Below, piece after piece: positions 5,691-52,462 of a DNA stretch of 64,000 nt (the stretch's first letter is position 1; every line of letters starts with the position of its first letter). The position numbers and the translations under genes are program-made. The DNA is from Candidatus Doudnabacteria bacterium (GTDB taxonomy: Bacteria; Patescibacteriota; Doudnabacteria; UBA920): the NCBI GenBank assembly GCA_031291995.1, contig JARLHZ010000039.1, positions 18,380-82,379 on the forward strand. The letters are read 5' to 3'. Under the pieces are notes generated by a model. That model was not told the DNA's origin and searched no databases. It saw only the letters and a list, made by a program, of their open reading frames with translations.

Positions 5691-6179
5691 TTGAATAATC
5701 TGATCATTTTTTCTACTCAATACTTGTACTTGCTGGTGGTTGTTCTAGCCACAGCGTATTTTTTTACCATCCCGAAAGACCAAAAGAGAAACTTTGGACT
5801 TTTGCTGATTATCGCCCTGCCCTGCATTTACCTAGTTTCAAGGGTAGCGGCTAACTTCTATTTCGATCCCCGTCCGTTTGTGATGGGGCACTTCACTCCA
5901 TTGATTCCCCATGCACCTGATAACGGCTTCCCTTCTGATCACGCCTTGATTACAAGCGCCATAGCTTCAGTAGTTTTTGTGTACAACAAAAAAGTAAGCG
6001 CTGTGCTTTGGGTGCTCACAATTATTGTAGGTCTGGCCAGAGTCCTTGCCGGCGTTCATCATCTCATTGATATTGCCGGAGCAATCACTATTTCTATTCT
6101 GGCAACCGCCGTTATAGATTACGTCCTAAAAAAAGCAAAAAGTTTTTACTTACAGAGACAAAATCTTCAGGTAGAGTAG
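5691..6179 (+). CDS. PAP2-family membrane phosphatase
   Basis: Motifs FDPRPF, PSDHA and ARVLAGVHHLIDI match the KxxxxxxRP / PSGH / SRxxxxxHxxxD PAP2 signature. 24 bp downstream of zur. Confidence 0.75.
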   Translation: MNNLIIFSTQYLYLLVVVLATAYFFTIPKDQKRNFGLLLIIALPCIYLVSRVAANFYFDPRPFVMGHFTPLIPHAPDNGFPSDHALITSAIASVVFVYNKKVSAVLWVLTIIVGLARVLAGVHHLIDIAGAITISILATAVIDYVLKKAKSFYLQRQNLQVE

Positions 6180-7199: not shown

Positions 7200-7200
7200 C

Positions 7201-8694: not shown

Positions 8695-8760
8695 AAATTG
8701 GTTGTCTTTGTCTGTGTGGAATTAATTATATCGTTTTAAGGATGGAGGATTTTTATACTG

Positions 8761-8863
8761 GCCTACAAGCAATCACCCTACATAGGATTTCAAACGTTTC
8801 CTGCCCAGGCGATATATGGAGCCACCAGCAAATTCACGCAGCGATTTGTATGTAGGGTGGGAG
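8761..8863. repeat. ~100-nt structured direct repeat, copy B
   Basis: Same-orientation copy of 7201..7312. The two copies bracket the helicase gene. Confidence 0.75.
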
Positions 8864-8994
8864 TAAACAAGGTGTTAATATTACTTGGAAATTCCTACAA
8901 AGCGAGTCTTTGAAATTTTGGCTGGTTATGATAGTCTTATAGTATAGATTTTCGTCGAAGGCCCGTCCTTTTTGGCGGAGAAATGGTTTCAGAG

Positions 8995-9037
8995 CAATCT
9001 GAAATAGGCGAAAACGCGGACCCCTTAACAGGGGTCT
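8995..9037 (+). terminator. Rho-independent terminator module (ATAGGCGAAAACGC + GACCCCTTAACAGGGGTC + T-run)
   Basis: 9-bp GC stem followed by TGTTTTTTG. About 80% identical to the module at 10473..10517. Confidence 0.65.
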
Positions 9038-9245
9038 GTTTTTTGTGAGAGTGCTGGTGTTGGTGTCACTGAGTGAAGTATCCTACCCTGCTCATTACGG
9101 GCTACAATCGTCCGCTCATAGCGGGGAGGTGGTAATTCGATTACAAAATGGAAAGGAATCAGTTTTACAGGGGTGTCAGCGGAAAAATATCGGGTAGAGT
9201 CCTGGCTATGCCGATTGTCTGTTTTGTACCAGGCATAATTTAAAG

Positions 9246-10382
9246 TTAATGTTTTTTTTCCGGTTTCATGAACCCGGAGAAGTTTTGCGAGTTCACGCCA
9301 CCCAATTCTTTCCGGCCATTTAAATCTTTAACGAAAATATTTTTTATTTTATCGGTCAAAGAGCGTTCTTTCCATTTGAATTCAAACCCGTCCACAAGCC
9401 CATCGGAAACTTCAATAAGGTCTATTTCTTCGCCCTTGTAAGAGCGCCAGAAATAGTGTTCGGCAAAGGCTCCCAGCGCCTCATTTCGCTTCTTCCTTTC
9501 CACGACGCAGAAGTTTTCCCAGAGCTGGCCCAGGTCCTGACGTCTGTCCAACTGAGTGAAATCGTTTATAATGGCATTGCGGATGCCGAGATCGTAAAAA
9601 TAATATTTTTTTTGTTTGATAATGGATTTTCTTTTGTTGGTAAAGTAGGGCTTTAAGGAAAAAATGATGTACAGTTTTTCCAGAATATCTAAATAGCTGG
9701 TCACGGTTTTGGTGTCAAGTCCCACAATGGTTGCCAGCTCGTTCATAGATACCTGGCCGCCCAATTGCAGAGCCAGGGCTTTTAAGATATGTTCCAGCGA
9801 GCGGGGGTTCTTTATATATTCAATGTTCAGCACGTCTTTAAACAGGTAATTGGTTGCAATATTTTGGATGATATTTCGGCGCGTTTCATCGGTATGAGCC
9901 GTTACAACTTCCGGGTACGAACCATATACCATGAAGTTGTTTAATTCAAATAAGCCTACGGCCCCGGCTTCGCCAAACGAGATGGGGTACATATTATAAG
10001 AAAAGTACCTGCCGGTTAAAGGTTCGTTGACGGTATTGGAAAGTTCAAAAGCAGAAGAACCCGTGGCAATGATTTTCAGTTTGGGCAGCTCGTCAAAAAT
10101 TACTTTCAGCTTGATGCCGATGTCTTCTATTCTCTGGGCCTCGTCAACAACCAGCAAATCAATATCCGCAAATTGCTTAACCATGTCGCGGGAAGGCCGG
10201 TTAAGTTTTTCCTGGTCGTCGATAAAATCTCCGTTTATATAGGTGCTCTTGGCGAAGCGGTCTAAAAAGTGTTTGACTAAAGTTGTTTTCCCTACCTGCC
10301 TGGGCCCGTAAATTATTAAAATTTTGCGATCCCGAAGGTTTTGTGAAATTTTTTCCTCTAAATATCGCTTTATTTCAGGCAT
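9246..10382 (-). CDS. AAA+ ATPase of the DUF4143 (COG1373-like) family
   Basis: Walker A GPRQVGKTTL, Walker B LLVVDEAQRI. About 378 aa, the typical size for the family. Confidence 0.75.
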   Translation of the reverse strand: MPEIKRYLEEKISQNLRDRKILIIYGPRQVGKTTLVKHFLDRFAKSTYINGDFIDDQEKLNRPSRDMVKQFADIDLLVVDEAQRIEDIGIKLKVIFDELPKLKIIATGSSAFELSNTVNEPLTGRYFSYNMYPISFGEAGAVGLFELNNFMVYGSYPEVVTAHTDETRRNIIQNIATNYLFKDVLNIEYIKNPRSLEHILKALALQLGGQVSMNELATIVGLDTKTVTSYLDILEKLYIIFSLKPYFTNKRKSIIKQKKYYFYDLGIRNAIINDFTQLDRRQDLGQLWENFCVVERKKRNEALGAFAEHYFWRSYKGEEIDLIEVSDGLVDGFEFKWKERSLTDKIKNIFVKDLNGRKELGGVNSQNFSGFMKPEKKH

Positions 10383-10472
10383 ATTTTTAATAAAAGTAAA
10401 TTTTTGGAATACACCCCATATTTTATATTTAAATAGAATTTAAGTCAAATTGGGTTTTTGGGCCTAAACGGG

Positions 10473-10517
10473 ATAGGCGAGAACGCAAACCCCAAAATTT
10501 GGGGTTTGTTTTTTTAG
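10473..10517 (+). terminator. Rho-independent terminator module, second copy (ATAGGCGAGAACGC + AAACCCCAAAATTTGGGGTTT + T-run)
   Basis: Near-perfect palindrome followed by GTTTTTTT. Shares the ATAGGCGARAACGC leader with 8995..9037. Confidence 0.65.
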
Positions 10518-10915
10518 CCATCAAAAAAATCGGCCATGCCCTATAGGGGCTAACCGATTTTTCTGTCCTAAGCTGTCTTTATGACTTAGTGATCCAACAT
10601 TGCAATAAGAGGTTGGCTGTTCCTATTCCGCAGATACGCTACGGACACCAGCCATACGGTCAGTATTCGGACTGGCCTTCGGCTATTTTAGCAAGTCGGC
10701 ATGCCTTCTTGCTAAACCAATCTCTGCCAAAAAAGGGCAGGCCTTCGCCGAGACCTTGTGGAGCCGAAGGGCTGGTTATGCTCCGCCGTCGACTGTTTAC
10801 AAAACAGTTGCTCTGCTATTGAACTACTTCGGCATGGGGTGAGGGACGGGTAATGCTCCCGCTTCTCCCGATTCACAGTCGGGTATAATTACTTTTATAC
10901 GACCCTCAACATAAG

Positions 10916-10989
10916 TGGCGCCGGCTGAAGGAACTGAACCCTCACTAACGGGTTTGGAATCCGTCGTCTTACCGTTAGACGAAGCCGAC
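10916..10989 (-). tRNA. candidate tRNA-Trp (anticodon CCA)
   Basis: Hand-folded cloverleaf: 7-bp acceptor with one G-U, U8, 4-bp D-stem with A14 and G18G19, anticodon loop UUCCAAA with U33 and A37, 4-nt variable loop, T-arm GAGGG/UUCAGUU/CCUUC, discriminator G, encoded CCA. Weak points are an A-C closing the anticodon stem and G at position 58. Confidence 0.55.
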
Positions 10990-11177
10990 AAACAAAAAAG
11001 CACCCAGCTATGGTTGCAATCCAATTTATGTTTAAAAGTTTATCTTATGCAAAAACATAAAGCAAATTACCCATAGCAAAATCCGTGGAATCTTTCCACG
11101 TGGTGGTATGATGTGTTGTTTGGGTAACTATTTGCTTCATAATAAATAAGACGAAAGCACTTATAGTTTTGTTACAG

Positions 11178-11603
11178 TTATTTTCTTTCCTTTAGTTCAA
11201 TTGATTCTTTTGTTAGATCAAATTTAATTACAAAAATTTCAAAAAATCCTTTTTGCCCCAAGATGCCATAACTGTCCTCGGAAATCTCTTCGGAAAACCC
11301 GACTGTGGTGTTATATTTCCAGCCACCGATGACCAAAGTAATTTTGTGCAGGTATGCGGCCGCTGCTTCAGTTTTTTGAACTCCACCAAAGGTTAGCTTT
11401 TCACCGGCGGTAATGTCCAAGCCTAAGGCCTCGCCGACTTCGGTATGGAATATAGAAAAATCGGCACCGGAATCAACTAGCGCCCTGTATTGCAAAGACT
11501 TATCGCCGTTAGCAATCCTGATGTCAATAATTGGCTTTAAAATAGAACTGCCGAAAAAGTTAGACCTTTCTGGCAGAGTAATTTTGGAGTAGTCAAATTT
11601 CAT
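11178..11603 (-). CDS. retropepsin-like (clan AA) aspartic protease
   Basis: ALVDSGADFSIF matches the D-S/T-G-A active-site motif. Likely start is MKFDYSKI; the in-frame upstream extension overlaps the next gene. Confidence 0.7.
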   Translation of the reverse strand: MKFDYSKITLPERSNFFGSSILKPIIDIRIANGDKSLQYRALVDSGADFSIFHTEVGEALGLDITAGEKLTFGGVQKTEAAAAYLHKITLVIGGWKYNTTVGFSEEISEDSYGILGQKGFFEIFVIKFDLTKESIELKERK

Positions 11604-11622
11604 TTTGTTTTTGGGTCGAAGT

Positions 11623-11817
11623 TTAAATAGCTCCGATCTGGGGAATAATGCGGGTGGGGACTTTAAAGAGGATGGGGTCATTAAAACCTTTGGTATTGGC
11701 CTCGTTTAAAACCTCTTTTACTGTTTTGCCGGCAGCAACAACCGTGATCTTATCTTCTTTTAAGGCTACCCATAGACCCTTATATTTTTGATAGATTTTA
11801 GTTAAATCAATGGCCAT
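11623..11817 (-). CDS. small protein (DUF5678-like) paired with the retropepsin-like protease
   Basis: 64 aa, KGLWVAL..DKITVVAAGKTVKEVLNEANTKGF..PILFKVP. Same strand, immediately upstream of the protease. Confidence 0.55.
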   Translation of the reverse strand: MAIDLTKIYQKYKGLWVALKEDKITVVAAGKTVKEVLNEANTKGFNDPILFKVPTRIIPQIGAI

Positions 11818-12310
11818 AAAATGAAAGTTTAATGATAATTTATATAACGAATTAGCAAACCGTTTGATACACTAATTTTACCTCAAGCGACCTAGCCGGT
11901 CAAACAGGGGAGGGTTCGGGAACAGAGTGAACAATTTTGCCCCGACTGTCACGCTCTACAATTTTCCGCGCGTAATGGGGCGGGGGCATTTTTACGGTAA
12001 AGGAAAAGGGGATAAATTTTGCGTCATCCCGCAAAGACGTATGCCCTTCGACAGGCTCAGGACTATGGGCGGTTGCGCTCAAGCTATGCCGATTTGAAAT
12101 GAAATAAAATTGAATTATAAATTAGAAATTATGAATGTAGCGCAGGCCAGTGGCCTGCTTTTACAGTTCACCCAATAGTATAAGCCAGACGGGCGCTTTA
12201 GCCAAGAGATTGACGGAATTAAATATTTGGCATACCATATTTTCTGTAGAAGCACACCATGCTCGTCGTAGACAGGGTGTGCGTTTTTATTTGTAGGAGG
12301 ATTCCGTAAA

Positions 12311-52110: not shown

Positions 52111-52462
52111 GCCGTGTCGCTGCCTTCGGGAGAATCGGTACAACAGGAAACTTACGGTAAATTATAGATTGCTATCATTCGACGTAGCATTAAATATTCA
52201 TTGTCATCGGGTATTATTCGGAGAGATTGTCTACAGGTTGTCCACAGAAAGAAACTTAAATGGTTAAATTCCCAATGAATCGCGGGTTATCTCCCGGTCT
52301 TAAAATTTGCATTTTTTTTGGTTTCCTTTTACAATTGCTATACGTTGAGTTTTAATCACGCTTCCATTCGCAGGGTTTAATGGTTAAGTAAATATTAAAA
52401 CTGACCGGGAATTTTGAAACTATAGTTCTTTTTCCGGACAGAAAGCCCTTGAGCTTCGCCAT

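Follow-up and report, generated by a model that had tools for sequence, protein, structure and literature searches.

Two of the three tRNA genes that lie in tandem on the minus strand of a 64-kb stretch of DNA from a member of Candidatus Doudnabacteria (the whole stretch is referred to below as the window) belong to a recurrent, covariation-supported class of tRNAs with an alternative elbow, found mostly in phage tRNA arrays. These two genes encode tRNA-His(GUG) and tRNA-Thr(UGU) and follow a canonical tRNA-Trp(CCA) gene; by comparison, the ATPase gene and the terminators found in the same region are ordinary. The best explanation of the locus, to which we assign a probability of roughly 0.7, is a patch of accessory DNA in the Doudnabacteria chromosome, made up of a tRNA operon with alternative-elbow tRNAs, an ATPase that is a defence candidate, and a repeated RNA-like element (Table 1).

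The tRNA genes and their alternative elbow

All three tRNA genes exceed the curated gathering score of the Rfam tRNA model (RF00005; 29 bits), and each match spans model positions 1 to 71. ARAGORN in its default setting detects tRNA-Trp and neither of the other two; tRNA-His is recovered with the option -ps80, and the His and Thr tRNAs are both recovered in mitochondrial mode (-mt). The CCA end is encoded in each gene, and neighbouring genes are separated by gaps of only 2–6 nucleotides (nt). A preliminary description of this DNA had recognised the cloverleaf of tRNA-Trp(CCA), which ARAGORN and Rfam both find, and had placed it in a gene-free stretch with UUCG-type hairpins suggestive of a stable structured RNA. 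Structured RNA is indeed present beside tRNA-Trp, but its identity is that of two further tRNAs, and with three tRNA genes the stretch is not free of genes. The CTTCGG and CCGAAGG strings behind the supposed hairpins are the acceptor strands of tRNA-Thr (GCCGAAG/CUUCGGC; two strings) and the segments CGAAGGCC and GCCGAAGG of the repeated element (again two).

It is extremely improbable that the region encodes a housekeeping structured RNA such as tmRNA, RNase P RNA, signal recognition particle (SRP) RNA, or 6S RNA, for which nothing speaks except the GC-rich stems noticed in the preliminary description. A cmscan search of both strands of positions 8700–11300 against all 4227 Rfam families (E ≤ 10) returned only tRNA and chance terminator-like matches. 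Because no other family matches, tmRNA, RNase P, SRP, and 6S RNA are excluded; no riboswitch match was obtained either. Furthermore, ARAGORN finds no tmRNA, and the sequence left after removal of the tRNAs is not significantly structured, with folds that barely surpass those of shuffled sequence (z = −1.55 for 10566–10758 and −0.8 for 10566–10673).

Few features in biology are as strongly conserved as the T-Ψ-C loop (Ψ, pseudouridine) and the G18-G19 motif, which are recognised by RNase P, by the ribosome, by modification enzymes, and by some of the toxins that target tRNA. The canonical elbow (G18-G19; T54-Ψ55-C56-R57-A58) is present in tRNA-Trp, which has GG in the D-loop, the T-loop UUCAGUU, and a discriminator G. 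The His and Thr tRNAs lack this elbow and keep only G19 and C56. Their D- and T-loops read AAAAGUA and AGCAUUA in tRNA-His, and AAUAGCA and AGCAUAA in tRNA-Thr. The class to which they belong is characterised by a body of ~70 nt, a 7-nt D-loop (A14-A15-W16-A18-G19-Y20-A21), a 4-nt variable loop, a T-stem closed by GG/CC, and the T-loop A54-G55-C56-A57-U58-W59-A60 instead of UUCRANY. Both window tRNAs match the definition of the class (D-loop A-R-W-A-G-Y-A, 4-nt variable loop, GG/CC T-stem, AGCAUWA). They also obey a rule that links positions 16 and 59, with A16:U59 in tRNA-His (AAAAG with UUA) and U16:A59 in tRNA-Thr (AAUAG with UAA).

Because one unusual T-loop is common to the His and Thr genes, public collections were searched for pairs of this loop with the pattern GGAGCATWACC..GGAGCATWACC. 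In IMG/VR the pattern identified tRNA arrays on 6 viral contigs, the 4 other matches being repeats in coding sequence. Among the 185,579 species representatives of GTDB, 4 stretches matched, of which 2 are arrays in metagenome-assembled genomes (MAGs) of the Verrucomicrobiota type and 2 contain no tRNA; an adjacent UUA-UAA pair of class tRNAs occurs in only 2 of these representatives. A metagenome collection yielded 5 stretches, 2 of them tRNA arrays. None of the 4 genome and 5 metagenome stretches stems from a relative of the window, and a pattern with three T-loops had no match in the GTDB genomes. The combination of D-arm and T-loop, used as a pattern of its own, matched 16 IMG/VR contigs.

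Twenty-two class tRNAs, the two window genes included, were aligned as a seed (A1), and a covariance model of the class (R1) was built. In this alignment 96.3% of the cells are standard pairs, and two-sided changes are found in all four stems. Positions 16 and 59 are complementary in every seed sequence (A:U in 12, U:A in 10); the selection of the seed had limited column 59 to A or U and left column 16 unselected. The rule also holds in 37 of the 38 sequences of a larger set gathered with R1, and in the sister T-loop variants GGCAGCA and AGCGUCA a C16 accompanies C59. G19 and C56 are invariant in the class. Against R1, tRNA-His and tRNA-Thr score 66.6 and 67.3 bits, respectively, values that are inflated because both genes were in the seed. 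As base 16 covaries with base 59 in 22/22 sequences, the class appears to represent a coherent alternative elbow and not a product of decay. In this elbow, base 16 would pair with base 59 and, by analogy with the contacts of canonical tRNA, A54:U58 would take the place of T54:A58, and A18/G55 that of G18/Ψ55. Within arrays, members of the class bear anticodons that are absent from the canonical members, which argues that they are working decoders.

A search of the whole window with R1 (filters off) revealed no further class tRNA in 10566–10758 or 8947–9016. The only other match, at 52276–52343 on the minus strand (..CGGGAG-AUAACCC..), is weak (19.6 bits) and falls in a 720-bp intergenic region; it has no Rfam match and would be either a chance similarity or a badly decayed copy. 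The tail of the tRNA transcript (10566–10673) matches neither R1 nor any Rfam family at E ≤ 10, and an open reading frame (ORF) check found none that is plausible, only ORFs of ≤20 amino acids (aa) or ORFs overlapping the tRNAs.

The class resembles canonical bacterial and phage elongator tRNAs (RF00005) in its stems of 7/4/5/5 base pairs (bp), 7-nt anticodon loop, G19:C56 pair, encoded CCA, aminoacylation identity elements, and occurrence in tight arrays. It differs from them by A18, A54, G55, and U58 in place of G18, T54, Ψ55, and A58, by the shorter body, the fixed length of the D-loop and the 4-nt variable loop, and by being missed by default ARAGORN. Cultured phages were searched by BLAST with one alternative-elbow tRNA-Ile as query, a search unable to test the class T-loop directly. 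Among the closest matches, tRNA-Ile(GAU) of Stenotrophomonas phage DLP_6 shares 81% identity with the class member. This tRNA and the tRNA-Met of phage phAPEC8 are similar to the class in their size of 70–71 nt, 7-nt D-loop, A54, and location within arrays. Both, however, retain G18-G19 and U55, with the D-loops AAAGGUA and AAUGGGA and the T-loops AUCGUUC and AUCGAAA, and their elbow is essentially canonical. A direct contact at the same position as the covarying pair of the class is documented for tRNA-Sec, as C16:C59 in Escherichia coli and U16:U59 in eukaryotes (PMC7609411). In other respects tRNA-Sec is unlike the class. It keeps the canonical contacts between D- and T-loop, its acceptor/T helices are of the 8/5 or 9/4 type, and its variable arm is long, whereas the helices of the class are normal. 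Mitochondrial type II tRNAs and tRNA-Pyl share with the class the lack of G18-G19 and of the T-Ψ-C consensus, and the mitochondrial mode of ARAGORN is the setting that detects the odd tRNAs of the window. In those tRNAs, however, the loops are variable and not conserved, or G19:C56 is lost, whereas the class shows a strictly conserved pair of loops, retains G19:C56, and occurs in phage-like and bacterial DNA. The literature searched describes no such T-loop class, although this search was limited and is not proof of novelty.

The phage-type arrays combine canonical tRNAs with the T-loops AGCAUWA, AGCGUAA, GGCAGYA, GGCGGCA, UGCAAUU, and AUCGUUA. Non-canonical T-loop designs were seen in arrays at the fetched loci L002, L003, L005, L008, L009, L011, L012, L015, L018, L019, and L038–L052 (for example, at positions 7200–8620 of L003). 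Each of these designs is paired with a 7-nt D-loop that is free of GG or altered. The relation between positions 16 of the D-loop and 59 of the T-loop is A:U, U:A, or C:C across the designs, and tRNA-Ile(GAU) is the commonest member. One alternative-elbow tRNA (L012, 1734–1867, plus strand) is interrupted in its anticodon region by ~75 nt, which may represent an intron-like insertion or two overlapping genes.

Function and origin of the tRNA operon

The minus-strand operon would be transcribed in the order tRNA-Trp, tRNA-His, tRNA-Thr, a ~84-nt element folding into a three-way junction, a ~108-nt tail, and an intrinsic terminator. The precursor would be cut into tRNAs, and the His and Thr tRNAs would be charged by HisRS and ThrRS and decode normally. 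Accordant features are found in both. In tRNA-His, G-1 (10910) stands opposite C73 and the anticodon is GUG; tRNA-Thr has G1-C72, C2-G71, and a UGU anticodon with G35-U36, followed at its 3' end by a discriminator U. As classical identity elements, HisRS recognises G-1:C73 together with GUG, and ThrRS recognises G1-C72, C2-G71, and G35-U36. The anticodon loops of both tRNAs comprise 7 nt with U33 and a purine at position 37, and the minimum-energy fold of tRNA-Thr is the cloverleaf (z = −2.6). Lacking U54, U55, and A58, the His and Thr tRNAs cannot carry m5U54, pseudouridine-55, or m1A58, and would therefore be independent of these modifications. Factors that read the T-Ψ-C loop may fail to recognise them. 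The fold of the whole tRNA transcript closes with the hairpin of the operon terminator, which also has a T-run after the hairpin on the plus strand and may thus act in both directions.

A different and rather unlikely view is that the His and Thr genes are non-functional, decaying remnants of a phage tRNA array, and that tRNA-Trp is the only functional gene. Decay would fit the U1.C72 mismatch and poor D-stem of tRNA-His, the bulge in the T-stem of tRNA-Thr, the absence of the cluster from relatives, its position among accessory and defence-type genes, and a nearby small ORF that lacks its start codon. However, all class-defining bases are kept, the covarying pair 16:59 included, and the identity elements, the 7-nt anticodon loops with U33 and purine 37, and the CCA ends are intact. 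That tRNA-Thr adopts the cloverleaf as its minimum-energy structure, and that the genes form a tight operon with a terminator, also speaks against decay. Several observations nevertheless weigh against the accessory-DNA patch with its alternative-elbow tRNAs. Besides the mismatch in tRNA-His, whose D-stem is weak, slipped, and AU-rich, and the one bulged A in tRNA-Thr, a promoter scan upstream of tRNA-Trp gave no convincing sigma-70 promoter. Exact-match scans of IMG/VR for the tail and for tRNA-His segments found nothing, and no donor sequence of the cluster was detected. The repeated element is represented by only two full copies, which fold with modest z-scores (−1.7, and −2.4 for copy B'). 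Finally, only 64 kb of the genome are in view; canonical His and Thr(UGU) tRNAs may be encoded elsewhere, with the odd ones being redundant or decaying.

The window is part of a cellular chromosome and carries genes for UvrA, UvrC, RNase J, TrpRS, large surface proteins, and the ATPase of a type IV pilus. A MAG of Candidatus Doudnabacteria (Candidate Phyla Radiation, CPR/Patescibacteria) contains a protein with 100% identity to this TrpRS, and the contig of the window is also present in Logan assemblies. In relatives whose TrpRS shares 81% and 70% identity, the syntenic loci do not contain the tRNA cluster, and synteny with them breaks after a gene for a HAD hydrolase. Several genes around the cluster are of accessory or defence type, coding for a DUF5678 protein, a retropepsin-like protease, the ATPase (PDC-S01), and a PIF1/Dda-like helicase. 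The lack of the cluster at the syntenic sites of the relatives suggests that it was acquired horizontally. Judging from where the class occurs, the source was probably a phage-type tRNA array. In a BLAST comparison of the array with cultured phages, only the tRNA-Trp part found matches (75–87%).

Considerably more tentative is the proposal that the AGCAUWA/AAWAGYA tRNAs constitute an undescribed structural class of elongators, in which G18, T54, Ψ55, and A58, four of the bases best conserved in tRNA, were replaced jointly and the elbow was re-stitched by 16:59. Phages might spread such tRNAs because these evade nucleases or toxins directed at the T-loop, or because they can do without modification by TrmA, TruB, and TrmI; the Doudnabacteria copy, which lies among defence-type genes, could then be a captured set that sustains His and Thr decoding when the canonical tRNAs are attacked. 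In any case, real tRNA genes can escape the standard finders. Because these tools miss them, the tRNA sets of CPR bacteria and phages look incomplete, and "empty" structured intergenic regions stay unexplained. As the alternative elbow recurs naturally across many anticodons, it can serve to test directly which of the interactions with the elbow depend on the canonical bases, and whether phages use redesigned tRNAs against tRNA-directed immunity.

Table 1. Features of the tRNA operon and its surroundings (window coordinates).
Feature	Position	Strand	Description
Element copy A	8947–9016	+	Predicted P1 UUUUCGUC/GGCGAAAA; P2 CCGUC-CUUUUU-GGCGG; P3 UUUCAGA(G)-GCAA loop; terminator directly after
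Module copy 1	9004–9045	+	P1 3' strand of copy A (GGCGAAAA), hairpin 9016–9039, T-run terminator
AAA_14 + DUF4143 ATPase, 378 aa	9246–10382	−	PF13173 (3.6e-29), PF13635 (6.7e-37)
ATPase promoter and box in the 5' untranslated region (UTR)	10406–10448	−	TTGACT, 17 nt, TAAAAT (10448–10420); box GGGGTGTATTCC (10417–10406)
Module copy 2	10473–10517	+	3' fragment of element (AUAGGCGAGAACGC), hairpin 10485–10509, T-run; back to back with operon terminator
Intrinsic terminator of tRNA operon	10523–10559	−	Hairpin 10530–10559, then U7 (10523–10529); inverted repeat I5
Tail of tRNA transcript	10566–10673	−	~108 nt; no family match, no significant structure
Element copy B'	10674–10757	−	Starts 1 nt after CCA of tRNA-Thr; inverted repeats I1, I16, I17
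tRNA-Thr(UGU), alternative elbow	10759–10833	−	Rfam 43.1 bits (10762–10833)
tRNA-His(GUG), alternative elbow	10835–10910	−	Rfam 33.7 bits (10838–10909)
tRNA-Trp(CCA)	10916–10989	−	ARAGORN; Rfam RF00005 49.9 bits (10919–10989); first gene of operon
Terminator-like hairpin	11084–11100	−	After aspartyl-protease gene, separating it from tRNA operon

The repeated element and the terminator module

A module consisting of ATAGGCGARAACGC, a GC-rich hairpin, and a T-run occurs twice on the plus strand, as the preliminary description had reported, and forms a 41-nt direct repeat (D1). The 14-mer alone is not rare (≤2 mismatches allowed), but its combination with a CCCC..GGGG hairpin was found 2 times against 0.00 expected. 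Both copies are predicted to be intrinsic terminators. Their 14-mers differ at 1 base, and their hairpins by one two-sided change from G-C to A-U and one change from G.U to A-U. No copy of the module was found in the relatives or the other loci examined. Three matches of the 14-mer in IMG/VR lie in coding sequence, have no hairpin, and were dismissed as chance.

The 14-mer is made up of J3/1 and the P1 3' strand of a repeated element of ~75 nt, which extends beyond the module. Two full copies of this element exist, A on the plus strand and B' on the minus strand, whereas module copy 2 has kept only the 3' part and shows no alignable similarity upstream of the 14-mer. A repeat search identified 8952–8981 of the plus strand as the reverse complement of 10721–10751. 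Copies A and B' share 46 identical columns in a two-sequence MAFFT alignment, which mis-registers P2, and a pattern of the element core gave 2 matches against 0 expected. Each copy on its own has the same three-way junction as its minimum-energy fold, which for copy A is also the centroid fold. The predicted shared junction comprises P1 (8–9 bp), J1/2 (GAAGGC), P2 (5 bp with a U-rich loop), J2/3 (AGAWWUGG), and P3 (8–9 bp). For copy B' the prediction specifies, besides P1 and J1/2 GAAGGC, a 5-bp P2 with the loop CUUUUUU, J2/3 AGAUUGG, and a P3 of 9 bp. Between the copies, P2 has undergone one change from C-G to U-A and P3 three two-sided changes, and the junction sequences GAAGGCC, AGAWWUGG, and AAAUAG are conserved. 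The element looks as if it were selected at the RNA level.

The module had been proposed to mark paralogous short transcripts on the plus strand. This idea is supported in part, because the module forms the 3' terminus of a larger element with two full copies that fold alike. One of them, copy B', which the preliminary description had not noticed, is a minus-strand sequence inside the tRNA transcript. Small RNAs or transcript-end modules are the favoured interpretation of the element. Ends of a mobile element are a less probable reading, given that the locus contains no recombinase and that homologs of the ATPase in other genomes are not accompanied by the repeats. In its specific form, the RNA interpretation would regard the two copies as paralogous small RNAs or processed transcript-end modules acting through the exposed U-rich loop of P2; copy A would derive from its own short plus-strand transcript ending at 9045, and B' would be excised from the precursor of the tRNAs. 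The common three-way junction, the conserved junction sequences, the strong structure of copy A together with its terminator (z = −4.2), and the placement of B' where processing of the RNase P or RNase Z type would release it are all consistent with this scenario. It is nonetheless doubtful, as the promoter scan predicted none for copy A, and there are just two copies without homologs, the third being only a 3' fragment.

The inverted copies could also be the ends of a mobile cassette that carries the ATPase gene and was inserted at the 3' end of tRNA-Thr. Copies A and B' do face each other and bracket 8947–10757, with B' only 1 nt past the CCA of tRNA-Thr; in addition, a near relative is devoid of copy A, and the ATPase is scattered over CPR lineages at ~80% identity. 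This origin is improbable, however, and less likely than an RNA-level role. The ATPase homologs at three other loci (L025, L026, and L027) have promoter and 5' UTR in common with the window gene yet carry no such repeats, and neither the interval nor the neighbouring ORFs contain a transposase or integrase domain. The differences between the copies preserve the hairpins, which fits selection at the level of RNA or single-stranded DNA and not a protein-binding end. No copy of the element core other than these two was detected in the window, the fetched loci, or IMG/VR, and the interval does not conform to a repeat-bounded cassette or transposon of the integron attC or terminal-inverted-repeat kind.

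In the near relative mentioned above (L032; PIF1 94% identical), 338 unrelated bases replace window positions 8856–9051. Copy A is absent there and, because unrelated bases occupy its place, is apparently either recent or dispensable. Next to copy A, a small coding frame at 9026–9216 on the minus strand (..YFSADTPVKLIPFHFVIELPPPRYERTIVARNEQGRILHS..) is conserved with positions 44–260 of L032 through synonymous changes. It forms a 50-aa ORF in L032; the window version has lost the ATG and ends in the loop of the terminator hairpin. A paralog of this frame (11900–12082, minus strand; 60 aa) is present in the window, and neither sequence matches any Pfam family.

The ATPase gene and neighbouring genes

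The ORF between the two modules was correctly described as an ATPase with AAA_14 and DUF4143 domains, both of which are identified by Pfam. Over residues 1–372 it is a full-length match to the hidden Markov model of the PADLOC phage-defence candidate PDC-S01 (PDLC04789, E = 9.8e-128). Its defence role is a database prediction and makes it a candidate. Like PDC-S01, the window ATPase is a single gene with its own promoter found in scattered lineages, and nothing sets it apart. It would act as a single-gene defence candidate with its own conserved promoter (scan score 10/12) and an operator-like box.

Other CPR lineages possess homologs of the ATPase with 79–81% identity, in genomic surroundings unrelated to those of the window. 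The promoter (TTGACT, 17 nt, TAAAAT) and the near-palindromic GGRGTGTAYTCC box in the 5' UTR are common to the window and L025, L026, and L027, and the module is not. Because the homologs share promoter and box without the module, the mobile unit appears to consist of promoter and gene, with the window repeats being a local feature. This comparison rules out the module as a part of the ATPase unit, and the former suggestion that the modules are the boundaries of an ATPase cassette finds no support, the homologs having kept the promoter and 5' UTR amid unrelated flanks. In three CPR lineages the box lies just downstream of the −10 hexamer (window 10406–10448; L025 ~5925–5990; L026 ~5930–5990), and in front of PDC-S01-type ATPase genes it may serve as an autoregulatory operator.

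The closest ATPase homolog (81% identity; L025, 6001–12974) is located beside genes for a phage portal-like protein and an SU10-type major capsid protein, and this locus is probably a CPR prophage. In a relative with a 76% identical PIF1 (L033, 930–5781), the genes clustered around this helicase encode a further AAA_14/DUF4143 ATPase, a primase of the AEP type, and a split DEAD/ResIII helicase. Given this clustering, ATPase and PIF1 may be paired as parts of a mobile or defence module. A related genome carries a LOOT RNA (RF03000, 57.1 bits) upstream of its TrpRS region (L023, 9009–9126, minus strand); none was detected in the window. Immediately upstream of the tRNA operon, an overlapping gene pair (11178–11817, minus strand) codes for the DUF5678 protein (64 aa) and the retropepsin-like aspartyl protease (167 aa), the latter with a weak match to PADLOC PDC-M52B.

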